Assembly: GCA_963719505.1 (NCBI GenBank) | Contig: CAVRCF010000003.1 | Location: forward strand, 1 to 64,000 | Source of the DNA: Halobacteriovoraceae bacterium | GTDB taxonomy: Bacteria > Bdellovibrionota > Bacteriovoracia > Bacteriovoracales > Bacteriovoracaceae | Length of the DNA: 64,000 nucleotides | Direction: 5' to 3' | In this document: piece by piece, positions 29,166-60,083 of the stretch | Numbering within the stretch: position 1 is the stretch's first letter | How the letters are laid out: each line of letters starts with the position of its first letter | The notes under the pieces: model-generated | What the model was told of the DNA's origin: nothing | Database searches by the model: none | The model's input: the letters and a program-made list of their open reading frames with translations, nothing else | Translations under genes and position numbers: made by a program

Positions 29166-30401
29166 GTGCAGGATGCGCGTAATATAGGGAAACACACAAC
29201 AGGAAGTTTAATGAACGTAAATGCATCAGTGCAAAATTTATCTTCACAAAAAGCTGGCCAGGCGATGAAGCAGGCTAGTGGTGAGATGGATGCGTTAACT
29301 GCATTAAGCCAGCAACTAGAAATCACTCCAGAGATGCTTGCCGAAAACCCAGAGCTAGCAAAGCTACTAGAAGGCAACAAAGAAGGATTAGATTTTCAGT
29401 CACTTTTAAAAGAATCAGAAAGTCCGAAGGGAGAAAAAACCTTAACTGACTTAATGAAAGGATTGAAAGAAGCAGCTGGTGAAGTCGGTGAAAACGTAGA
29501 AAGTCTTAAGGGCGAGAAGCTCGTGAAGGATCCAGCGCTTAAAGAAGCCGCTTTTAAGGATCCAAAGATTCAACAAGCCGTATTTAAAGATCCAAAGATT
29601 CAAGCAAAAATTGAACAAGGAATCCTTAAAGGTGATCCAGAGGATCAAAAGAATCAAAAGTTAGAAAAAGCAGGACTTGTAAACTTGGAAGAGTTTGTTA
29701 AAAACCAATCTCCAACAAAAAAAGCTGCTATGAACAATGCGTATAAAAATTCTATGAATGAGTCTCTTCTTAATAAAAAAATTGATGCTCAGATTCCATC
29801 TCTTACGGGTGCGAATACAACGAAGCCGATGAAAGTTACAGACTTTATGTTAATGGGAAATGAGTCTCAAGACGCTGGTGATTCTGCAATGCAATTTGGG
29901 AAAAATCAAACGACTCAGATTCAAAATAACAACTCGGCGGCAACAGTTGGTAAAACCTTTGATATGAGCACTCTTACAAGTGATGCTACGGGTGAAGTTA
30001 TTGGGAAGATTCAAGATTATATTATCCAAACAAGAGCGAGTAATGAGCCAAATGTTCAAATGAGCTTTGAGCATAAAGATCTTGGGATGATTGATCTTCA
30101 AGTGACAAAAACAGGCACAAACGAATTAAATATTATGATTAATTCTCGGACGCAAGAAGGAGCGAAGTTCTTCACACAAAACCAAAGTGAACTTCTTCAA
30201 TCTCTTTCTCAAGCTGGAATTAAAGTCGCTGATCTTAAGCTAGATTCAAGTAGTAATACGAATCTTTCACAAAATGGAAATGAGTCGAGTCAAAATCAAG
30301 CGGATAAAGGCCAACAAGGTCAGCCGAGAGATCAGAGACACTCAGACTCAAGAAGACGTGAAGAACTTTGGAAACTATTTGACCAAAGAGAGGCTGCATA
30401 A
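29166..30401 (+). CDS. fliK: Flagellar hook-length control protein FliK
   Basis: Low-complexity N-terminus, C-terminal T3S4-like domain (HKDLGMIDLQV...LLQSLSQAGIKV) and Q-rich tail; precedes flgD. Start codon uncertain. Confidence 0.8.
   Translation: MQDARNIGKHTTGSLMNVNASVQNLSSQKAGQAMKQASGEMDALTALSQQLEITPEMLAENPELAKLLEGNKEGLDFQSLLKESESPKGEKTLTDLMKGLKEAAGEVGENVESLKGEKLVKDPALKEAAFKDPKIQQAVFKDPKIQAKIEQGILKGDPEDQKNQKLEKAGLVNLEEFVKNQSPTKKAAMNNAYKNSMNESLLNKKIDAQIPSLTGANTTKPMKVTDFMLMGNESQDAGDSAMQFGKNQTTQIQNNNSAATVGKTFDMSTLTSDATGEVIGKIQDYIIQTRASNEPNVQMSFEHKDLGMIDLQVTKTGTNELNIMINSRTQEGAKFFTQNQSELLQSLSQAGIKVADLKLDSSSNTNLSQNGNESSQNQADKGQQGQPRDQRHSDSRRREELWKLFDQREAA
29526..29603 (+). repeat. 30-bp in-frame tandem repeat in fliK (two full copies and a partial third)
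   Basis: Units begin AA(G/A)GATCCA at 29526, 29556 and 29586, encoding KDPALKEAAF/KDPKIQQAVF/KDPKIQ. Confidence 0.8.
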
Positions 30402-31396
30402 TGGAAATGGGTAGACCACTGTCAGGTCAGAGAAATAAATTCAATGAAGTGACAATTGCTAAAAAGGCAAATAACGTCGACCCATCTCAAATGTCTCCTC
30501 AAGAGAAAGAAAAATACATGCAAAACCTTACCGGTTATAAAGAGAATAATAAAATATTCGTTGACGGTGAGAAGCATAATAAAATGGGAAAGGATGAGTT
30601 TTTAAAGCTTTTGACTTTCCAGTTAAAAAATCAAGACCCAATGAAACCAATGGAGCAGGGAAAGATGGCTGGCGAACTTGCACAGTTTTCTCAACTTGAG
30701 CAGCTTACAAATTTAAATACTAAGTTTGACGGTATGGGGCGAGATAAAAATATTGAATCTAAATTTTATGGAGCAAGCTTTCTTGGAAAAGAAGTTGTGA
30801 CAAATGGTTCAAGTTTAGAATTAAAAGGTGACGGAGAAAAATCAGATATTCTTTTTAATTTGCCAAAGCCAGCTTCAAAAGTTCTTCTTCGAGTTTTCGA
30901 TAAAAGAAATGCAATGATTGGTGAAGTGTGGCAGCAAAATGTTGGTCGTGGAAATCAATCTGTTACTTGGGATGGAATTTCTTTAGATGGAACTCCTGCC
31001 GTTAAAGGTGAATACAGAGTTCAAGTTATGGCCTTTGATGAGAGTGCTCAAAGAATGGCTGTTGAAACAAAAAATAAAGGAACAGTTGAATCTATTTTCT
31101 TTGAAAATGGTGAAACAGTTTTAAAAGTTAATGGAAAAAAAGTTTATCTTCGTGATGTCGATTCTTTTCACCTTGAAGGTAAAGGAAGAGTATCAACGGC
31201 TAAAGAAAACCACACTGCAGAGGCTCTTGCTGGTGTTGAACAAAAAGTGGGAAGATCTGCCGGATCGAATTTACCTATTGCGCAAAATAATAATATCGGG
31301 GTAAACTTAGATAGGGCTAAAAAACAATCTGGCCTCAACACTTATGGTAAACAGAATGTTGGAACAGGTATAACAAACGTATACGATACGGAGTAA
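30401..31396 (+). CDS. flgD: Flagellar hook-capping protein FlgD
   Basis: GKDEFLKLLTFQLKNQDP, LAQFSQLEQ and the WDG Ig-like domain. Confidence 0.95.
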   Translation: MEMGRPLSGQRNKFNEVTIAKKANNVDPSQMSPQEKEKYMQNLTGYKENNKIFVDGEKHNKMGKDEFLKLLTFQLKNQDPMKPMEQGKMAGELAQFSQLEQLTNLNTKFDGMGRDKNIESKFYGASFLGKEVVTNGSSLELKGDGEKSDILFNLPKPASKVLLRVFDKRNAMIGEVWQQNVGRGNQSVTWDGISLDGTPAVKGEYRVQVMAFDESAQRMAVETKNKGTVESIFFENGETVLKVNGKKVYLRDVDSFHLEGKGRVSTAKENHTAEALAGVEQKVGRSAGSNLPIAQNNNIGVNLDRAKKQSGLNTYGKQNVGTGITNVYDTE

Positions 31397-31398
31397 AA

Positions 31399-31809
31399 TT
31401 GGCGAATAATATAAACAATATATTAATTCCAAATGTTACAAAAACTTCTCATCAGAAGAGTGTAGACGTATCGAACCGCTTACCAAAAGAAGGTAAGCCA
31501 AGTGAATTTAATAATCTTTTAAAAGAGATTAATTCTGAGAAGCCCGTTCACGGTGGAATTAATCTAAGCACGCACGCGGCTAAAAGGTTAAGTGAAAGAA
31601 AGATTGATTTTAACGGAGAGGAATACCTCAAAGTTAAAGAAGGGATTTCCAGATTGAGTGCCAAAGGTGGTAAGAACTCTCTAGTAATCACAGATAAAGC
31701 TGCTTACATCGTAGATGTAGCAAATGAAAAAGTTATAACAGCTGTTGATAAGATGAGTATGAACGACAATGTTTTTACAAAAATCGACTCAACAGTTTTT
31801 ATGAATTGA
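31399..31809 (+). CDS. Flagellar operon protein, TIGR02530 family
   Basis: STHAAKRLSER, KGGKNSLV and NVFTKIDS motifs; typical position between flgD and flgE. Confidence 0.85.
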   Translation: MANNINNILIPNVTKTSHQKSVDVSNRLPKEGKPSEFNNLLKEINSEKPVHGGINLSTHAAKRLSERKIDFNGEEYLKVKEGISRLSAKGGKNSLVITDKAAYIVDVANEKVITAVDKMSMNDNVFTKIDSTVFMN

Positions 31810-31922
31810 TATAAATTTTTTTGTTGTTAAAGAAAACGGGTTGGTCCTTTCCGGAAACCTCAGTTTAGAGCCTTTAGTGCTCTACTCATTCTTTAACTCA
31901 TGTAGGTCTAGGAGGGACAATC

Positions 31923-33203
31923 ATGGGATTACTATCATCTTTCAACACTGGTGTATCGGGACTTGCTGCGGCAGGTACAAGTATGGGCGTTATCGGGGAT
32001 AACATTGCCAACGCGGGGACACACGGTTTCAAACGCTCAAGAGCAGAATTTCAAGACATGTTAGCAAAAAGTCTAAAAGGTATCGATGGTGGAGATCAGA
32101 TCGGTTCAGGGACAAAACTTGCTCACGTCACAGCTCAATACTCTCAAGGGAGTATCAAAAGAACAGAAAATATTACAGACGTAGCCCTAAATGGAAATGG
32201 ATTTTTCACAATTAAGGCTCCATTTGGTCAAGGTTATACAAGAGATGGTGCTTTCCACTTCGACAAAGAAGGTCAATTGATCACTGGTGATGGTTACCAA
32301 GTTATGGGTTTCCAAGCTGATGACAAAGGAAAGATCACAGCAAAACAAGATGTTATTAAATTAGGAAATACAACAGTTCCAGCTGAAGCAACTTCAGAAG
32401 TTGAGTTCTCTATGAACGTTGACTCAAGAGAGAAGCCTAAGCAGTTTAACCCACTTAACCCAGAAGACACTTCAAACTTTAATACAAGTGTTACTGTTTT
32501 TGATAATATCGGAACTCAAAGAGTTGTCACGATGTACTTTAACAAACTAGGGCCAAATCAGTGGGAATACCATGCAATGGCAGATGGCAAAGACGCTCAA
32601 GGTGGAGTTGAAGGTCAGATGGTTGAGATGGCAAAAGGTAATTTACAATTTGATTCAAGAGGTAGACTTCAGTCAGAAACTCCACAGTTAAACTCTTTTA
32701 ACTTTAATAATGGAGCGGCTGCGGGACAAGAAATCAAGTTCAACTTTGGTGAATCAATTGCTGAAGGTGGAGATGGAAAAGGTGCAAGTACACAGTACGG
32801 AACTGACTCTTCAATCGCAAGACATACACAAGACGGGAATAGTGCAGCAACTCTTTCTTCATTATCATTTAATGACGACGGTGTTCTATCAGCTTCTTAC
32901 GATAATGGTACAACAAGAGATATCGCACAAATTGCCATCGCAAAATTTGAAAACAACGAAGGTCTCTTCAAGACAGGTAAAAACCTTCTTAAAGAAACAA
33001 GAAAGTCTGGTCAACCGGCAATTGGTCAACCAGGAAAAGATGGAAGAGGACAAGTTTACTCTAAGTCTATCGAGCTTTCTAACGTTGATATCGCAAATGA
33101 ATTTATCGATATGATGGGTGCACAAAGAAACTTCCAAGCAAACACAAGAACGATCACAACGAGTGATCAGATGCTTCAAGAAGTTCTTAATATCAAGAGA
33201 TAA
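31923..33203 (+). CDS. flgE: Flagellar hook protein FlgE
   Basis: GDNIANAGTHGFK, YTRDGAF, ELSNVD and QRNFQAN motifs; GGAGG RBS. Confidence 0.96.
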   Translation: MGLLSSFNTGVSGLAAAGTSMGVIGDNIANAGTHGFKRSRAEFQDMLAKSLKGIDGGDQIGSGTKLAHVTAQYSQGSIKRTENITDVALNGNGFFTIKAPFGQGYTRDGAFHFDKEGQLITGDGYQVMGFQADDKGKITAKQDVIKLGNTTVPAEATSEVEFSMNVDSREKPKQFNPLNPEDTSNFNTSVTVFDNIGTQRVVTMYFNKLGPNQWEYHAMADGKDAQGGVEGQMVEMAKGNLQFDSRGRLQSETPQLNSFNFNNGAAAGQEIKFNFGESIAEGGDGKGASTQYGTDSSIARHTQDGNSAATLSSLSFNDDGVLSASYDNGTTRDIAQIAIAKFENNEGLFKTGKNLLKETRKSGQPAIGQPGKDGRGQVYSKSIELSNVDIANEFIDMMGAQRNFQANTRTITTSDQMLQEVLNIKR

Positions 33204-34576: not shown

Positions 34577-35014
34577 ATGAAGTTAGTCATTATCATGCTT
34601 TTAACATTATCATCAGCTTTTGCAAAAAACTCATTGGTTGGAGCTTATGCCGAGTATAACTTTGATGCGGGTAATATCAAGGGAACGATGAAAGTTGAAC
34701 TCACAAACTACAATCCAGCTTCAAATACTTTCACACAAACAACAACGACTCATTCCGAAGGCAATACAAATGTAGATACTGATACTGTGTCTGCAGATGA
34801 TATCAATACTCAGGATGAGAATTTAATGATCTTAAGTATCTGTGAGACTGAGCTAGGTGGAAAACTTCAGCAGCTTACAGTTGCGGCCGGTACATTTGAA
34901 ACTTGTAATATCTCTGATACAGATACGAGATTCTACTTTGCCAATGTTCCTTTTGGATACGTAAAACTCATCTCTACAATTCAAACAGTAGAGCTAAAAA
35001 GCTTTTCTTTCTAA
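34577..35014 (+). CDS. Hypothetical secreted protein
   Basis: GGAG RBS, signal peptide ending SSAFA, and an LTVAAGTFETC motif. Confidence 0.75.
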   Translation: MKLVIIMLLTLSSAFAKNSLVGAYAEYNFDAGNIKGTMKVELTNYNPASNTFTQTTTTHSEGNTNVDTDTVSADDINTQDENLMILSICETELGGKLQQLTVAAGTFETCNISDTDTRFYFANVPFGYVKLISTIQTVELKSFSF

Positions 35015-35874
35015 GAAGCTTTTAAAAACTTTCTAACAAAATACCTTTTTATAAAAATCATCCACACGGGCTTTGGTTTTTCTACTTTATGTGTCCATGG
35101 ATTAATAAAGTATCCCCTGTAATTGGAAACATCTGTAATACCTAAAACATTTCGAATCACTTCATAGGCCATAAGTGTTCCGGTATTAATGACCATTGGA
35201 GAAAAAGAAATTCTCTTTCTCGTGCCCGCAGCAATTTCTTTAGCAATATCAGGATCGATATAATCAACATTAGTTGTATGGGTCATAACGAATTCAATCT
35301 CTTTTAAAAAACATCCAGAGAGTACATCTTCACTTAGCTCAGAGTTTTTCTTACCGACACTTGGATAGTCTAGAAACTCTTCCGGTCTAGGATCCCTTGG
35401 TCTCACTGTGTAGACATTAGGAAAGAGGGAAGCATAAGCATCAATGGCTATTTTTCCGTGCTCTTTAGCTTTTCGCATAAGATTAATGGAGGCAAAAGTA
35501 TCATCACACCCATTGACGACAATATCGACTTTGGACAGAATTTTATCTAGCTCAGGCACCCAATCCTCTGGTGCTCTTTCGATCTTTAAATCGGGGTTTA
35601 TCTTTAAGCATCTTTCTATCGTCGATTCTAATTTTGATTCGTCAACATTGTCTAAATCACAAAACACTTGGCGATTCATATTGGAAACTTCAAAGGTATC
35701 AATATCCACTAGTATGAAGCTTTCAATCCCTGCTCTGACCATCGTCATAAGAGCGGCACCTCCCATCCCCCCAACGCCTGCAACAAAGACTCTCGTCTCT
35801 TTTAACTTCTCTTGTTGTGTTGGTGTCACGAAGCCAATATTTCTTGTCGTGAATTCCGAATAGTTAAATGTCAT
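35011..35874 (-). CDS. ThiF/MoeB/E1-like adenylyltransferase
   Basis: VAGVGGMGG, DIDTFEVSNMNRQ and VNGCDD motifs; no CxxC zinc pairs; ATG 35874 overlaps the upstream gene. Confidence 0.9.
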   Translation of the reverse strand: MTFNYSEFTTRNIGFVTPTQQEKLKETRVFVAGVGGMGGAALMTMVRAGIESFILVDIDTFEVSNMNRQVFCDLDNVDESKLESTIERCLKINPDLKIERAPEDWVPELDKILSKVDIVVNGCDDTFASINLMRKAKEHGKIAIDAYASLFPNVYTVRPRDPRPEEFLDYPSVGKKNSELSEDVLSGCFLKEIEFVMTHTTNVDYIDPDIAKEIAAGTRKRISFSPMVINTGTLMAYEVIRNVLGITDVSNYRGYFINPWTHKVEKPKPVWMIFIKRYFVRKFLKAS

Positions 35875-36823
35875 GAGTATCCTTTGAGTTCGGTATAAGC
35901 CATCTAAAGTAGGGAAGAACAATTGTTAAAAATAAAGCTAAGAAAATGTTTACAATAAAATTACCAAGAGCACCTTGTATAACTTTATTTTTTAAAGTAC
36001 GAATAATAAATTTAATATCTAAAAACGCGACCTGCATAAAGTCATCACCGCGGGCATAGTCTAGACTGTCTTCCAAAAAGACATCCACTCTTGTGTCTGC
36101 TCTATATTTTGCACATTGAGCAAACGTCTTTTTAAGGTTATCAGATCCCCCTGTATAGGAGTCTTCTATGATAAAGTCCTCAGCTAGAAAAATAGCTTCC
36201 TCTCCAACTCCGAAAGCCTGTTTATGCTCATTAAATATTTTCTGGGCAATAATTTTTTGCTCCTGGTTGGGTTCATCTTGGTACATTGACGGATAGCAAG
36301 AGGTATAAAAGTCTTGCACGAGACCAAAGGCTGCTGGGACTTGAGTAACGTTACTTATCCATTGTTTTCTAAATCCATTTTTAAGGAGAATGAAAAGGTT
36401 AGGTAGCCCGTATATTAAAGTTGTAATATTTTTTCCACGTGAGGCTTTAGAGACAAAAGCCAGGCCTAAATGGAGAACTTCTTCTGTCGTCGCTCCCAGC
36501 TCAATATGAAAATAGATCTGGGCTGACATGGCAATAGGTCTATCATCCTTGTCGTAGATGATACTAATAATCCTTTTAGCTAAGTCTGATGCTTCGCCTT
36601 TTAAAACACCATATTCTGGGACATCAATTGCATCTTCTGAGTTTGCCACAACATCGGTGACATCTTTAATGATTCTTTGAAGTTGTTCCTCTGTGCACCA
36701 AAGAGCTGGCTTTTCCCAAATTTCAAACTTTAAACCACCGCGAAGTTCTATGCGACAATTAAATCTCTCACTGTCCGTTGTAACAGCTTTTATAATGGAA
36801 TAGAGATTTCTAGCGACGAGCAT
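35864..36823 (-). CDS. Atypical GNAT-fold protein with C-terminal membrane anchor
   Basis: VLHLGLAFVSKASRGKN resembles GNAT motif A; C-terminal hydrophobic helix; GGAG RBS before ATG 36823. Confidence 0.6.
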   Translation of the reverse strand: MLVARNLYSIIKAVTTDSERFNCRIELRGGLKFEIWEKPALWCTEEQLQRIIKDVTDVVANSEDAIDVPEYGVLKGEASDLAKRIISIIYDKDDRPIAMSAQIYFHIELGATTEEVLHLGLAFVSKASRGKNITTLIYGLPNLFILLKNGFRKQWISNVTQVPAAFGLVQDFYTSCYPSMYQDEPNQEQKIIAQKIFNEHKQAFGVGEEAIFLAEDFIIEDSYTGGSDNLKKTFAQCAKYRADTRVDVFLEDSLDYARGDDFMQVAFLDIKFIIRTLKNKVIQGALGNFIVNIFLALFLTIVLPYFRWLIPNSKDTHDI

Positions 36824-38003
36824 AGGTATCTCCAATGATGAGAGCGGTAATTTTTCCAAAACACAGGCTCATCTCGTCTATACTCTCTGATGGGTAAACC
36901 TCGACAGTTAATATCGTTTCATCATCGAGATAATAAAAGACATGACATTTGTAAAACTTGAAGGCTTTTTCTATTTCAATCTTAAGCTCTCTACAAATAT
37001 CTAATTCCTCCTGATGAAGGGGACTATCCAGCAGATCGATGGAGAGGACTCTGGACTTATCTTTTAGAAACTGTTGAAAATGAATGAATTTATTTTCATT
37101 GAGCTCATTGATATTTATATAGCGAGTTCTCTTTACGTAATTGAGAAGCTCTATATCTCTCACTTCTTTAAAATGGATAAGCTCTTTAGTTGCAGACTTT
37201 ATATCAAAGCGGTAGATCTTAGAAATATTGCTAAAGATCGACTTAAAGGTGAGTTCGATAAGAAATGAGGCTATGACAATAAATGAAAAGATACTCCAGT
37301 CAGCATTTGGAATGAGAAAGTAGAGGGTATAGGAGAATCCTAATATTTTAATAATCGAGAAAAACGAGCCCAATAACATATTTTTTCGTGTTAAGGAGTG
37401 TGAATTATTGATCATGGCCGTGACGATGAAGACAATAGGAAAAATAAGAAGCGCTGAGGGACGAGTTGAAAAATAATTTCGACTTAGTGTCCAGTCAACG
37501 AGAAGAATAATTAAGGCAGAAGCCATGGCGATAAGAGAGCCAGAGTATCTTCTTTTTTCAAAGTTTGATTTCGCTGATTGAAGACCCTTGAAGTTTAGAG
37601 CATACAGATAGCCAAATATAGATATTTGCCAAATGAACGATAGGCCCAACCAATATACTGTAACGTGGTAGTCTGTCGCTGTTCCTATTAAAAGAATAAA
37701 GAAGATAGTGCTAATGTAGAGCTTAAACTTTATGGAGAGCCTAAGTTTTCCAATTTTTTCAAAGAAAATGAGAATACTAAACATGCATAGGGTGAGAAAA
37801 AAGTGCTCTAGATTATAGGCGGTAGACTCAACGGTTCTTTCAGAAATGGATCTAAAACTATAGGCCAGCCCTAAACTGAGTGTCATAAATCCGTAAATGA
37901 TTCTAATAGAATCCTTCTTTTTCATGATAAATGCGGACGCGGCTAAAAGAATGAGACTCAGCGAAGCCAGAGCATTCAGTTTAGCGATAAGAATATCTGT
38001 CAT
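36810..38003 (-). CDS. Polytopic membrane protein (about 8 TM) with soluble C-terminal domain
   Basis: Repeated hydrophobic helices over roughly the first 260 aa; no catalytic motif in the tail. Confidence 0.75.
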   Translation of the reverse strand: MTDILIAKLNALASLSLILLAASAFIMKKKDSIRIIYGFMTLSLGLAYSFRSISERTVESTAYNLEHFFLTLCMFSILIFFEKIGKLRLSIKFKLYISTIFFILLIGTATDYHVTVYWLGLSFIWQISIFGYLYALNFKGLQSAKSNFEKRRYSGSLIAMASALIILLVDWTLSRNYFSTRPSALLIFPIVFIVTAMINNSHSLTRKNMLLGSFFSIIKILGFSYTLYFLIPNADWSIFSFIVIASFLIELTFKSIFSNISKIYRFDIKSATKELIHFKEVRDIELLNYVKRTRYININELNENKFIHFQQFLKDKSRVLSIDLLDSPLHQEELDICRELKIEIEKAFKFYKCHVFYYLDDETILTVEVYPSESIDEMSLCFGKITALIIGDTYARR

Positions 38004-38009
38004 GATGCC

Positions 38010-38036
38010 TTATCGGAGTAGTTGACAAAAACATTA
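38010..38036 (-). promoter_or_regulatory. Sigma-28 (FliA)-type promoter
   Basis: Minus strand TAAT-N15-TCCGATAA, 6 nt before ATG 38003. Confidence 0.6.
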
Positions 38037-38068
38037 AAGAATTCTTGAGGTTTTGACGATATGAACCT

Positions 38069-39166
38069 ATGGAAATTAAAACTGATAGATTTAAAGACTT
38101 TTTTGAAGTCCCGTTTAGTATTTATAAAGGCTCAAACTACGTTTCACCTTTCAAAGATGACCTTAAACGTTTTCTCAATAAAAGGAACCCCACATTTGCG
38201 GGTAAGGATAATTTTGAGATCTTTACTCTTTATCAAGGTGGCAAGTGTATCGGAAGGATCTGTGCACATGTTCATGGAAAGTATAATTCCCACTACAAAT
38301 CCAAAACAGGATTCTTTGGCTTTTTTGATTGTATAAATGACCAGGCAGCAGCCAACCTCCTTTTGGATTCAGCTTGCACTTGGCTCAAGCATAAAGGGAT
38401 GACAGAGGTGTGGGGAAACTTTAATCTGACAACCCAGCAACCTTTTGGCGTGATGACTGAGGGATTTGAAAATAAGCCCTATATGGAAATGCTCTATAGT
38501 CCAAAATATATAGCTGATCTCTTGAGAGCTCGTGGGTTTAGTCCCGACTTCCCAGTGACAACCTTTGAAATTGATTTAGATAATGCTCTTGAAAATGACT
38601 TACAATCCGCTAAAGTTGCAGAGATTTTAAGCAGTGACGACTTTGAAATCAGAAAGGTTTCAAAGAAAAACTTTAAAAAACAAATGGCCCAGTGCTGTGA
38701 ACTTTTAAATATATCTTTTGCAAAAAATCCACTCTTTGTTCCCATTTCAAATGAAGAATTTTGGTTTCAAGCCAAAGAGATGACTTATATTTTAGATGAA
38801 GAGATTACTCAATTTATTTATCATAAAGAAGAAGTTGCAGGTGTTGTCGTCTGCGTCCCTGACCTAAACCCTGTTCTTGAAAAGTTTAAGTCACGTCTTG
38901 GATTAGGACTTATTTATAATCTTCTTCGTCTTAAGAAAAATAAGGATCGTGCTCTTTTGGTATTCGCATCAGTAGATCCGAAGTTCCATTCCCAAGGCTT
39001 AGGTGCCGCTATGTTTATCCGCTGTATTGAAAACCTTGTAAAAAATGGATACAAAAGTCTAGGAATAACCTGGGTTAGTGATTCAAACAAAGCGTCTTTA
39101 GCCGGGATTAATAAACTCAAGCATAAAAAACTTCATAGGCTTTATATCTTTAAAAAAGCTTTATAG
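38069..39166 (+). CDS. Tandem-GNAT acyltransferase, YghO/bacterial ceramide synthase-like family
   Basis: IGRICA, GFFGFFDCIND, WLKHKGM..VWGNFN, GFENKPYMEMLYSPKY, VDPKFHSQGLG and TWVSDSN motifs. Confidence 0.75.
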   Translation: MEIKTDRFKDFFEVPFSIYKGSNYVSPFKDDLKRFLNKRNPTFAGKDNFEIFTLYQGGKCIGRICAHVHGKYNSHYKSKTGFFGFFDCINDQAAANLLLDSACTWLKHKGMTEVWGNFNLTTQQPFGVMTEGFENKPYMEMLYSPKYIADLLRARGFSPDFPVTTFEIDLDNALENDLQSAKVAEILSSDDFEIRKVSKKNFKKQMAQCCELLNISFAKNPLFVPISNEEFWFQAKEMTYILDEEITQFIYHKEEVAGVVVCVPDLNPVLEKFKSRLGLGLIYNLLRLKKNKDRALLVFASVDPKFHSQGLGAAMFIRCIENLVKNGYKSLGITWVSDSNKASLAGINKLKHKKLHRLYIFKKAL

Positions 39167-39706
39167 AGGTGATATCATCGAACGAAGATGCTTATTGAAT
39201 TTCTCTAAAAGCTCTTCCGTTGGAACAAGTTGTCTTTCTGTAATTCCAGCAAGATCAAAAATCTTTTTTGCAATCTTATGACTCTCAGTAAGAGCGTGCT
39301 TGTTTGAAAGGTAAATGACTTCTTTCACACCAGAGCTGGCCAGTAACTTTGCACATTCATTACAGGGAAATAACGTTACATAGCAGCGGCTGTTTTTTAG
39401 ACTTCGAGGTGAGTGTAAAATAGCATTGGCTTCAGAGTGGACGACATAGCCGTATTTTTGATGCTCTAAAGGCTGAGATTTGTCTTTTCCCCATGGGAGT
39501 TTAGTCTCATCAATCCCAGCAATAAAACCATTGTAGCCCATTGTTATTTGGTGGTTAAATTCATCAACAAAAACACTTCCCACTTTTGTGGCAGGATCTT
39601 TTGATTTAAAACTGGCCATCATCGCTTGCAACATAAAGTACTCATCCCAAGTGAGAGCACTTTTGGCTTCAAAGTAATTTGGATTTTTGCTTAAATCTTC
39701 AGGCAT
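39161..39706 (-). CDS. Deoxycytidylate (dCMP) deaminase, ComEB-like
   Basis: WDEYFM, SKDPATKVG, GYNG, HSEANA and PCNEC zinc motifs. Confidence 0.92.
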   Translation of the reverse strand: MPEDLSKNPNYFEAKSALTWDEYFMLQAMMASFKSKDPATKVGSVFVDEFNHQITMGYNGFIAGIDETKLPWGKDKSQPLEHQKYGYVVHSEANAILHSPRSLKNSRCYVTLFPCNECAKLLASSGVKEVIYLSNKHALTESHKIAKKIFDLAGITERQLVPTEELLEKFNKHLRSMISPL

Positions 39707-40674
39707 TAGAAACTCACACTATCTGGGTCAACACCAATAGAGTCGTCAGGCGTGTAGTTTTCTGTATTGTATTCCTGTTCTGTTGAATCTGCTTTCATAA
39801 GTGGTTTTTTGTTAAGCATGATTACCTGATCGAGATGATTGCGAAGAGTTGAGAGGCCTTTGATCACCTTTTCCATATCTTCGTGATTAGATGTCATCTC
39901 TTCAAGAATGACTTTAGCTGCGAGCTTATTAAGTCTTTTCGTTAGGGTATCAATACTTTTATATTCTTTTGGAAAACTTGGTGCAAATAAGACATCGTCA
40001 ACTGCTTGGTCAACGCCCTTTGATTTAATTGCCTTAACTAAATCTTTCACTTCACGAGTTGATTTGTCTTTTACCATATCAACAATCTTGTCTTGATCTT
40101 CTTTACCAAGTTTAATTATTTCGTTCGTTTGTGAAGCGTTTAATTCTCCGTGCTTTCTATACTCTTTAACTTTATCAGAAGAATTAGCATCTCTATCAAT
40201 AGCACTTTTTATTACTTTTTTAGAAAGACCCGTTTTCTCAGAAGTTAGGTCGATGAAAGATCGTTCTTCATTAGGGAGATCAACATGAGTGTTTACGCCT
40301 TCTTGAGTTGTCATATCTTCATCTTTAACTTTCTTAGCATTTGGATAAAGTTCTTCGTAGATTTCTCGTCCACGATTAAGGCATTTTTCGAATTCAACTT
40401 TGGTAAGGTCTTTTCTAACAAGGTTTTCATCAATTGAGATAAGCTCTTGTTCAGCTTCTGTTTTATCAACACGGTAAACGGGAACTTCCGACACACCTAG
40501 CTCTTTTAGAGCACTATATCTTCTGCCGCCAGCGATGAGTTCATTGTTATTATTGATAACGAGAGGACTGATAAGTCCCACTGTCTCTATACTCTTTTTT
40601 AGTTTTTCGATATTTGTTTCAACTCTTAAATATGAACTTTTAGTTTTGATGTCAGTGATTGAAATCATTTCCAC
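39706..40674 (-). CDS. ParB/Srx N-terminal domain protein with HTH
   Basis: LKKSIETVGLISP, LIAGGRRY (GxxR), ENLVRKDL and an HTH-like SEKTGLSKKVI. Confidence 0.85.
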   Translation of the reverse strand: MEMISITDIKTKSSYLRVETNIEKLKKSIETVGLISPLVINNNNELIAGGRRYSALKELGVSEVPVYRVDKTEAEQELISIDENLVRKDLTKVEFEKCLNRGREIYEELYPNAKKVKDEDMTTQEGVNTHVDLPNEERSFIDLTSEKTGLSKKVIKSAIDRDANSSDKVKEYRKHGELNASQTNEIIKLGKEDQDKIVDMVKDKSTREVKDLVKAIKSKGVDQAVDDVLFAPSFPKEYKSIDTLTKRLNKLAAKVILEEMTSNHEDMEKVIKGLSTLRNHLDQVIMLNKKPLMKADSTEQEYNTENYTPDDSIGVDPDSVSF

Positions 40675-60056: not shown

Positions 60057-60083
60057 TTATCGGATGAATTCGCTCAGGCTTTA
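60057..60083 (-). promoter_or_regulatory. Sigma-28 (FliA)-type promoter
   Basis: Minus strand TAAA-N15-TCCGATAA upstream of 60032. Confidence 0.75.

Follow-up and report, generated by a model that had tools for sequence, protein, structure and literature searches.

A ThiF and acyltransferase locus of a Halobacteriovoraceae bacterium as a possible reduced copy of a widespread lipoamino acid cassette

What might a bacterium make with a ThiF-like adenylating enzyme, two acyltransferase-like proteins and a polytopic membrane protein encoded side by side? We address this question for a locus of a Halobacteriovoraceae bacterium that lies in a 64,000-nucleotide (nt) stretch of contig CAVRCF010000003.1 (assembly GCA_963719505.1), hereafter the window. 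Four open reading frames (ORFs) are confirmed there: on the minus strand, three overlapping genes for the membrane protein (36810..38003), for a membrane-anchored GNAT-fold protein of an unannotated family that we call P2 (35864..36823) and for the ThiF-like enzyme (35011..35874), and, divergent from them on the plus strand, a gene for a YghO-family GNAT (38069..39166). The original prediction had read this layout as a membrane-localised pathway that makes and activates an N-acyl amino acid or lipid, an idea now supported by the co-occurrence of the genes, by the finding that the ThiF-like protein is neither TcdA nor MoeB, and by ThiF phylogeny. With confidence evenly balanced for and against, we propose that the locus is one copy, reduced by the lack of the oxidase, of a widespread cassette whose product would be an N-acyl amino acid (lipoamino acid) derivative associated with the membrane, its carboxyl group being activated by ThiF. 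The chemical steps and the substrate are put forward on the strength of gene structure, protein folds, conservation of the gene set and ThiF phylogeny, and sequence would point to a class of product rather than name one.

The case for a cassette begins with the distribution of P2. A word-indexed collection held 1223 homologues at E<=0.001 among 3634 candidates, an exhaustive search of cluster representatives found 546 at the same threshold (379 at 1e-10 and 147 at 1e-30), and a P2 relative is encoded in 590 of 598 pattern-matched stretches, taken at one genome per species, which gives at least 590 species. For counts of co-occurrence, ORFs in the best 80 P2 loci were called, clustered and scored with hidden Markov models (HMMs), P2 being present in all 80 by construction. 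The membrane protein accompanies it in 76, and the four loci without it are cut by contig ends or have short flanks. ThiF is present in 60 loci and the YghO-type GNAT in 51, with ThiF alongside in 51/51. Two further genes are common: a flavin oxidase of about 330 amino acids (aa) that is Acg/TyzC-like (48/80), and a RoxA-like di-haem cytochrome c protein (35/80). If M stands for the membrane protein, P for P2, T for ThiF, Y for the YghO-type GNAT, N for the flavin oxidase and R for the RoxA-like protein, the commonest patterns are all six genes (MPTYNR, 26 loci), the pair of P2 and the membrane protein by itself (16) and the set minus the RoxA-like gene (MPTYN-, 15). The window's four families occur together in 50 loci (the 26 and 15 just given, MPTY-R in 7 and MPTY-- in 2). 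The four-gene locus of the original prediction therefore stands as a recurring set, but the cassette normally has two more genes than were first seen.

By their record titles, the 80 loci span Bacteroidota, Bdellovibrionota, Myxococcota, Alpha-, Beta- and Gammaproteobacteria, and Acidobacteriota. The genes are arranged differently from group to group (most Proteobacteria have P-T-M-Y-N, Bdellovibrionota M-P-T-Y-N-R, Bacteroidota R-Y-M-P-T and Myxococcota M-P-Y-T), and because the set persists through these rearrangements we regard the four genes as a functional unit. A natural ThiF-YghO fusion was also found (P0121, 679 aa), and ThiF fused to YghO was the only fusion to come out of the word-indexed search of longer proteins, in which a blank is weak evidence; the same kind of search, with the same limit, returned no longer protein containing P2 at E<=1e-10. 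That the four genes are neighbours with no functional link is exceedingly improbable. The YghO-type gene does lie on the other strand, genes of its family are found by themselves in E. coli and in 22 of 40 relatives of this genome, and the relatives are without the cassette. Against this stand the joint occurrence of the four families in 50 of 80 loci across at least six phyla or classes, the overlaps between the minus-strand genes (11 nt for P2/ThiF and 14 nt for membrane protein/P2, with the starts chosen below), and the natural fusion. Chance adjacency is excluded.

The flavin oxidase matches the Acg family NF047509 best (159 and 122 bits, below the cut-off of 199), and it also aligns with the nitroreductase halves of the Rv1355c and PRK14851 models. 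Neither the oxidase nor the RoxA-like gene was found beside the window's four genes, and the classical nitroreductases of the Halobacteriovoraceae genome are of another type than the cassette oxidase. Two cassette-type RoxA-like di-haem proteins are encoded elsewhere in the genome (C4:97608-99011, E 7.8e-44; C5:463142-464866, E 1.3e-33). Oxidase-less loci that keep the YghO-type gene number 10 of 80 (MPTY-R 7, MPTY-- 2, -PTY-R 1) and are mostly from Bacteroidota and Myxococcota. In the related Trz pathway, TrzS cyclises before desaturation, and the saturated cyclised intermediate accumulates when the oxidase step is missing (PMC12856293). Since TrzS cyclises first and loci without the oxidase recur, an oxidase-less cassette would be chemically plausible.

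What kind of ThiF does the cassette carry? The window protein belongs to Pfam PF00899 (E 2e-34), yet it falls below the cut-off of every NCBIfam ThiF-type model, including ThiF itself (85 bits against 159). MoeB was rejected as its orthologue at 82.7 bits against 266, and TcdA (PRK15116) at 46.8 against 304, with a separate TcdA-like gene on contig C4 (C4:241175-241576, 246 bits). Across 41 family sequences the adenylation residues are invariant, the invariant positions of the family being RN-G, GxGGMG, DxD, NxNRQ, K97 and NGxD, and there is no conserved Cys. The features first picked out in this protein hold up: its four Cys include no CxxC pair of the kind that binds zinc, and its basic C-terminal tail is kept across the family, with the consensus VRRFL.

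PRK08223 is the best NCBIfam match in 7/7 ThiF family members tested, the six orthologues scoring 105-130 bits. We therefore looked at what surrounds this family elsewhere, scanning 300 gammaproteobacterial genomes with PRK14851; 22 had strong matches, eight of them full-length at about 660-820 aa. Two ThiF-nitroreductase fusions match PRK08223 over their N-terminal halves, at 440 and 409 bits, and Rv1355c and Acg models over their C-terminal halves. Among 11 neighbouring proteins scanned at the fusion loci, six are Acetyltransf_5/FeeM-type acyltransferases and two belong to the nitroreductase family. An acyltransferase next to a ThiF-nitroreductase is the architecture of OxzAB and Tyz (bioRxiv 10.1101/2020.06.11.147165; PMC10404671; PMC12479983). 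In a maximum-likelihood tree of 37 ThiF sequences, rooted on TcdA-like rows, the cassette ThiFs form one clade (support 100/99), which joins the ThiFs of a second module found in relatives of this genome (99/97). This pair is in turn sister to the PRK08223 clade that holds the ThiF-nitroreductase fusions (99/96), to the exclusion of MoeB-type and TcdA-type rows. The sister relation is supported in a tree built without MccB, PaaA or E1 references, and it bears out the analogy to OxzAB from which the original prediction started. The cassette ThiF is thus a probable carboxyl-activating enzyme or cyclase for a small molecule. Two relatives encode five stand-alone PRK08223-type ThiFs (three loci in G013 and two in G024; L027-L031; 325-386 bits), none of which has a P2, YghO, membrane-protein, oxidase, acyltransferase or nitroreductase neighbour, and for want of cassette neighbours they are uninformative on the cassette.

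Most characterised ThiF-like enzymes act on a protein, a peptide or tRNA (PMC12596934), and the cassette ThiF could likewise adenylate the C-terminus of a protein or ribosomal peptide in the manner of ThiS/MoaD, MccB or PaaA substrates, with the GNATs modifying the product. MccB and PaaA are indeed among the PDB sequence matches (E ~1e-9), over the Rossmann half only; the matches of E. coli ThiF (E 1.9e-12) and MoeB (2.7e-12) cover residues 36-150. We consider this very improbable. A partner of the ThiS, MoaD or ubiquitin-like kind and a precursor peptide had both been reported missing from the vicinity, and wider searches agree: the whole genome holds no ThiS-family match above the cut-off (the best, at 20.3 bits against 22.5, lies inside a 693-aa ORF), and none of 181 small ORFs within 30-44 kb, 7 kb to either side, ends in GG, with one ending in GNG inside a flagellar gene. 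The overlapping genes leave no room for a precursor peptide. The protein (287 aa) starts at the Rossmann domain, with no N-terminal peptide-clamp extension and no conserved Cys, and the tree groups it with a small-molecule-type clade.

If ThiF activates a carboxylate, P2 is the candidate for the enzyme that supplies it. P2 matches nothing in Pfam or NCBIfam, its profile returns no PDB sequence at E<=10, and it is a new GNAT family, with the invariant motifs HLGL, W(I/V)SNVTQVP, FGVG, YTGGSD-LKK and LDYxRGDD. The AF2 model (pLDDT 92.7, pTM 0.90) shows a GNAT fold that contains insertions, together with a helix at the N-terminus and a hydrophobic one at the C-terminus (residues 285-309). Foldseek lists 78 matches at E<=0.001, headed by NatD (1.8e-6), and a VIA structure comparison gives 103 chains at Z>=8, headed by 2r7h and RimI (both Z 11.1; for 2r7h, root-mean-square deviation, rmsd, 2.9 over 150 aligned residues). 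A P2 paralogue matches Acetyltransf_1 at 24.9 bits, above the cut-off of 20.7. We are confident from the predicted structure that P2 has the GNAT fold, and its description as a membrane-anchored GNAT-like protein is borne out by fold and C-terminal helix alike. A comparison with FeeM- and LuxI-type GNATs had been suggested, and it confirms the fold without any special closeness: FeeM (Z 9.2, rmsd 3.6, 163 residues aligned) and the acyl-homoserine-lactone synthase RpaI (Z 9.4) stand among dozens of GNATs equally close. Neither P2 nor the YghO-type protein matches PF13444 or PF21926, the FeeM/Acetyltransf_5 type.

The relatives of P2 suggest amino acids as its acceptors. P2 paralogues nearer than those of the second module adjoin a PlsC-type acyltransferase gene in 5/5 loci of this genome and its relatives. 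Two of 13 long P2-profile matches tested are PlsC-P2 fusions (P0193, 572 aa, E 3.7e-49; P0198, 462 aa) whose N-terminal PF01553 domain is best matched by OlsA families. OlsF has a PlsC/OlsA-like N-terminal domain and a C-terminal domain that N-acylates ornithine (PMC12971839). This shared domain architecture suggests a possible link between the two families and makes P2 a candidate amino-acid N-acyltransferase. The genome's own paralogue locus (C1 ~968455-971900; L008:7278-10754) carries, in this order, a nitroreductase (PF00881), a P2 paralogue of 262 aa, an M20 peptidase and a PlsC-type acyltransferase, and looks like a split OlsF-type aminolipid operon. The P2-like proteins of four of the 40 relatives and the one elsewhere in this genome were rejected as cassette members, being paralogues at no more than 27% identity with no ThiF, membrane-protein or YghO neighbours. 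P2 was likewise rejected as an OxzA/TyzA orthologue by comparison with six OxzA-like proteins.

A second pairing of P2 with ThiF bears on the age of the association. In three loci of relatives a ThiF 35% identical to the window's is followed, in 3/3 cases, by a protein of 281-294 aa that is a remote P2 homologue (hhalign 98.4%, E 5.4e-15, 235 columns). Because these sister-module ThiFs also adjoin P2 homologues, the pairing should be older than the split of the two ThiF clades. The sister module consists of a histidine kinase, ThiF and the remote P2 homologue (L024:6512-9714, L025:7086-10353, L026:7083-10317). Its ThiF and P2-like proteins share a C-terminal ending of KKAA, KAA or KKAG, and near the L025 module lie two multi-helix kinases and a gene resembling haem oxygenase (PF14518).

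The second acyltransferase-like protein (365 aa) has an Acetyltransf_1 domain at residues 242-345 (E 6.3e-7) and is homologous over its full length to E. coli YghO (b2981; BLASTP, 22% identity over 370 residues, E 6e-29, residues 8-365 against 29-390). The gene had been described as encoding a tandem, YghO-type GNAT; this homology bears out the YghO type, and the tandem part finds no backing in an hhalign comparison of the N- and C-terminal halves, at 4.3%. The YghO profile finds only generic GNAT C-terminal matches among PDB sequences (best E 0.019). The window protein is 37-44% identical to its counterparts at related loci, and the cassette YghO profile scores it at 517 bits against at most 265 for the YghO-family genes of relatives, by which it is a cassette-type orthologue. 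YghO-family genes are present in 22 of the 40 relatives (G001-G040), so the family is wider than the cassette and some of its members would function independently of ThiF. In PMC6199490, YghO is named in strain and plasmid lists.

These observations also bear on a different use of the same enzymes, in which P2 and the membrane protein would make a lyso-aminolipid for the membrane of the cell itself. ThiF and the YghO-type GNAT would jointly act as an ATP-dependent amide ligase and couple an amine or a further amino acid to it, so that a membrane lipid of the lipodipeptide type would result in place of an oxazolone. The nearest relatives of P2 do sit in OlsF/OlsBA-like contexts, in the five PlsC-type loci and the two fusions with OlsA-like N-terminal domains; the YghO-type gene is never found without ThiF and is once fused to it; and oxidase-less variants exist in Bacteroidota and Myxococcota. 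We nonetheless think this head-group extension distinctly unlikely. The cassette has no O-acyltransferase, the TyzC/Acg-like oxidase in 48 of 80 loci suggests chemistry of the dehydro or oxazolone kind, and GNAT donors are normally thioesters, not adenylates. To our knowledge, no ThiF-GNAT ligase pair has been described.

The most constant partner of P2 is the membrane protein, and what it does shapes how the whole cassette is read. It matches nothing in Pfam or NCBIfam. Its polytopic character, originally read from the sequence, is seen in the predicted structure (pLDDT 82.6), which has nine helices, the first seven forming a seven-transmembrane (7TM)-type bundle, and a C-terminal, cytoplasmic alpha/beta domain of about 130 aa. 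An HMM of 70 P2-neighbour membrane proteins matches a single ORF in the genome, the window's membrane protein (E 6.6e-10), which is 9-17% identical to family members and keeps the invariants E82 and K94, and also R51, P74 and D170. A ceramidase of the CREST kind was considered, with AdipoR2 (Z 16.1) and ACER3 (Z 14.2) among the structural matches, and was dropped, the family having no invariant His/Ser/Asp set but E82 and K94 only. We considered the roles of scaffold, exporter and receptor. Complex prediction of P2 with the membrane protein scored 0.41 (runs 0.43, 0.41 and 0.39) with the best control at 0.00, a partner pLDDT of at least 73 and runs agreeing on at least 37% of contacts. In calibration, 116 of 157 solved complexes passed, as did 2 of 215 mismatched pairs; at scores up to 0.60 the passes came to 18 of the 157 and both mismatches, so that a pass near 0.41 is more often wrong than right unless the pairing is likely beforehand. 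The prediction thus lends weak support to P2 being docked on the membrane protein, and the invariant residues E82 and K94, which lie in a cytoplasmic loop, might serve such docking.

The same fold raises the possibility of a sensor. The enzymes might make a diffusible signal of the N-acyl-amino-acid type, by the chemistry proposed here, for which the 7TM protein would be the receptor, as in LuxM/LuxN, with output through its C-terminal domain. Each of the 50 top VIA matches is a 7TM protein (Z 16.2-13.0, with an alignment that covers residues 1-201 or more), five of 60 family members weakly match 7TMR-DISM_7TM (PF07695; best E 1.1e-4), and a language-model search returned HisKA_7TM (0.88) and GAF clusters, which below 0.9 serve as a lead only; Foldseek gave weak G-protein-coupled-receptor-like matches at E 0.035 or worse. 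A histidine kinase gene lies directly upstream of the sister-module ThiF, on the same strand, in 3/3 loci, one of which has the two further multi-helix kinases; signalling has been raised as a possible role of oxazolones (PMC12856293); and P2 with the membrane protein is the minimal pair, the only two genes in 16 of 80 loci. Even so, a receptor is unlikely. The membrane protein has no kinase, cyclase or DNA-binding output domain, and a comparison with the sister loci's multi-helix kinases detected no homology (hhalign 0.12%; hmmsearch E 0.12 and 2). Helical bundles can come close to Z values of 13-16 merely through the way their helices are arranged, and the invariant E82 and K94 would equally fit P2 docking. 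A bolder form of the idea, which we regard as rather improbable, makes P2 and its 7TM partner a self-contained synthase-receptor pair, in which the enzyme docked on the receptor would make the ligand, for a new class of lipoamino-acid/oxazolone signal, which ThiF, the YghO-type GNAT, the oxidase and the RoxA-like protein would tune or destroy and which would be switched on with the motility regulon.

Returning to the reading of the locus as a reduced lipoamino acid cassette, we can sketch how the proteins might work together. P2, which its C-terminal helix would anchor in the inner membrane and which probably docks on the 7TM partner, would N-acylate an amino acid, with acyl-CoA or acyl-ACP as donor of the fatty acyl group. 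The ThiF-like enzyme would use ATP to adenylate the free carboxylate of this N-acyl amino acid, and the acyl-adenylate would then close to a 5(4H)-oxazolone, as in OxzB, TyzB and TrzS, or be captured by a nucleophile. The YghO-family GNAT, which we tie to the ThiF step because it is always found with ThiF and is once fused to it, could tailor or transfer the activated product, and the membrane protein would scaffold, export or sense that product. In most relatives of the cassette the Acg/TyzC-like flavin oxidase would add an alpha,beta double bond; with no such oxidase found in this genome, the window's product should be saturated or further conjugated.

Several observations weigh against this pathway and hold our confidence in it down. 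The first group concerns the acyltransferases: unlike those of the Oxz, Tyz and Trz systems, they are not of the FeeM/Acetyltransf_5 type, and neither GNAT is detectably related to the known synthases, with hhalign probabilities against six OxzA-like proteins of 0.07% for P2 and 0.28% for the YghO-type protein; FeeM, moreover, is one among many GNAT structures at Z ~9 for P2. The second concerns ThiF. Its best NCBIfam match, PRK08223, reaches 102 bits against a cut-off of 266 over the N-terminal 134 residues only, for some orthologues the MoeB and ThiF models score nearly as well (for example 129.8 against 110.6 bits), and the 37-row tree has the composition noted above. The third concerns the gene set: the 16 loci with P2 and the membrane protein alone imply a core function that needs no ThiF. 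In the Halobacteriovoraceae genome, which is 83.5% complete, the cassette HMM for the flavin oxidase has no match and NF047509 reaches just 20.6 bits. The 40 relatives hold no true P2 or ThiF orthologue (best identities 27% and 35%), by which the window copy stands alone in its lineage.

How the locus might be expressed is suggested by its layout. Gene starts were chosen from family alignments and ribosome-binding sites. For ThiF the best start is the ATG at 35874, which has AAGGA upstream and agrees with family N-termini in the alignment, the ORF being open back to a TTG at 35922; for P2 (319 aa) it is the ATG at 36823, with GGAG upstream. The first description of three overlapping minus-strand genes lying 65 nt from a divergent GNAT gene is correct, that gap being the distance between the membrane-protein and YghO-type genes. 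Within it, on the minus strand, lies the motif TAAT-N16-CCGATAAG (38010..38036), which ends 7 nt before the ATG of the membrane-protein gene. We presumptively assign it to sigma-28 (FliA), whose consensus we take to be of the TAAA-N15-GCCGATAA type. TAA stands at exactly this spacing in 27 of 130 CCGATAAG sites genome-wide, against about 4 expected and 2-7 at each of seven other spacings tested, and because of this enrichment the bipartite motif is above chance. The sigma-28-type promoter claimed for the three genes accordingly holds as a sequence observation, and expression in the attack phase is a suggestion drawn from this promoter motif only. The 7-nt distance implies a near-leaderless transcript for the membrane-protein gene. 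TAA-N16-CCGATAAG is often just 5-10 nt ahead of an ATG (for example at C1:1227650, C1:1134518, C2:333898 and C5:422342, and in the window at 38010-38036 and 60057-60083), a sign that sigma-28-type promoters of this genome may start many transcripts with no leader or next to none. A generic scan for sigma-70 promoters and terminators stayed at background (16 found against 15.3 expected, and 5 against 3.5).

The surroundings of the locus are of mixed character. Upstream, on the plus strand at 29166-33203, are genes for FliK-like, FlgD-like and FlgE-like hook proteins, judged by translation, a flagellar region that fits a motile organism with a FliA regulon. At 34577-35014 a 145-aa ORF with a signal-peptide-like start runs towards the ThiF gene, with a 4-nt overlap at the ThiF stop; no family matches it, and it was not seen at related loci. 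Beyond the YghO-type gene and convergent to it (39161-40674) come a dCMP deaminase gene and, overlapping by 1 nt, a gene for a 322-aa protein with a ParB N-terminal domain only (PF02195, E 8.5e-10), a pair that is not conserved beside the cassette elsewhere. Base composition gives no sign of a genomic island, the GC fraction being 0.355-0.391 across 28-45 kb.

ThiF-dependent oxazolone lipids were discovered between 2021 and 2025, and their physiological role is called unresolved (PMC12856293). The cassette suggests the same logic of acylation followed by activation by ThiF in a second, much wider guise, built from two unannotated protein families: P2, with its 546 cluster representatives and at least 590 species, and a 7TM partner that belongs to no Pfam family. 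A literature search turned up papers on Oxz, Tyz, Trz and stieleriacine, a single review of ThiF and some passing mentions, with no description of the gene set in their titles and abstracts. The cassette ThiF may already be among the unnamed subclusters of a published ThiF network of 2416 sequences and 24 subclusters (PMC12856293). We see the cassette as a variant of an already known logic of acyltransferase, ThiF and nitroreductase-type oxidase, set apart by acyltransferases that are not orthologous, by the 7TM partner and by additional modules. If the chemistry is true, it would give names to two large families of 'hypothetical protein', a first functional context to E. coli YghO-type GNATs, and a compact soluble-plus-membrane system for asking what oxazolone-type lipids do. 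The oxidase-less window copy would be a natural dropout that should reveal the action of ThiF on a saturated substrate, and a synthase-receptor pair, if true, would offer a testable receptor for oxazolone-type lipids.

How, then, does the cassette stand beside known systems? The pathways from N-acyl amino acid to acyl-oxazolone are those of Tyz in mycobacteria (TyzA/B/C), Oxz in Pseudoalteromonas rubra (OxzA/B) and TrzA/TrzS (PMC10404671; bioRxiv 10.1101/2020.06.11.147165; PMC12856293). Like these, the cassette has an acyltransferase gene directly upstream of a ThiF-like adenylating enzyme, a nitroreductase-superfamily flavin oxidase in most loci (best match Acg NF047509), neither carrier protein nor precursor peptide, and a ThiF clade that is sister to the fusion clade. 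It differs, beyond the acyltransferases, in that the window ThiF scores 102 bits where the criterion for an OxzB/TyzB-type ThiF is a PRK08223 score of at least 266, its clade being sister to, not inside, the PRK08223 clade; in the conserved basic C-terminal tail of its ThiF; in a second, YghO-family GNAT; in a 7TM membrane protein as its most constant partner (76/80); and in the RoxA-like di-haem protein of 35/80 loci, with the oxidase not found in the window copy.

The ornithine or lysine lipid synthases OlsF and OlsB/OlsA (PMC12971839) resemble it from the side of P2: the P2 profile matches PlsC/OlsA-P2 fusions of OlsF architecture, P2 paralogues adjoin PlsC-type genes in 5/5 loci, and both would N-acylate an amino acid at the membrane. 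The cassette, in contrast, has no O-acyltransferase, and its P2 has a transmembrane helix of its own and the extra invariants YTGGSD and LDYxRGDD and is coupled to ThiF. With the ThiF/MoeB sulfur-carrier adenylyltransferases and TcdA the cassette ThiF shares the Rossmann-type ATP-binding half, but it lies below all family cut-offs, has no CxxC and no conserved Cys, and has no ThiS partner match above the cut-off in the genome. From the MccB/PaaA-type adenylating enzymes of ribosomally synthesised and post-translationally modified peptides it differs in setting, the cassette having no candidate precursor ORF, overlapping genes and a ThiF without an N-terminal peptide-binding domain. E. coli YghO, an uncharacterised GNAT annotated as a putative transcriptional regulator, is homologous over its full length to the divergent window gene; its own gene adjoins glcC and an IS5 element, with no ThiF or P2 within the 20 kb inspected.

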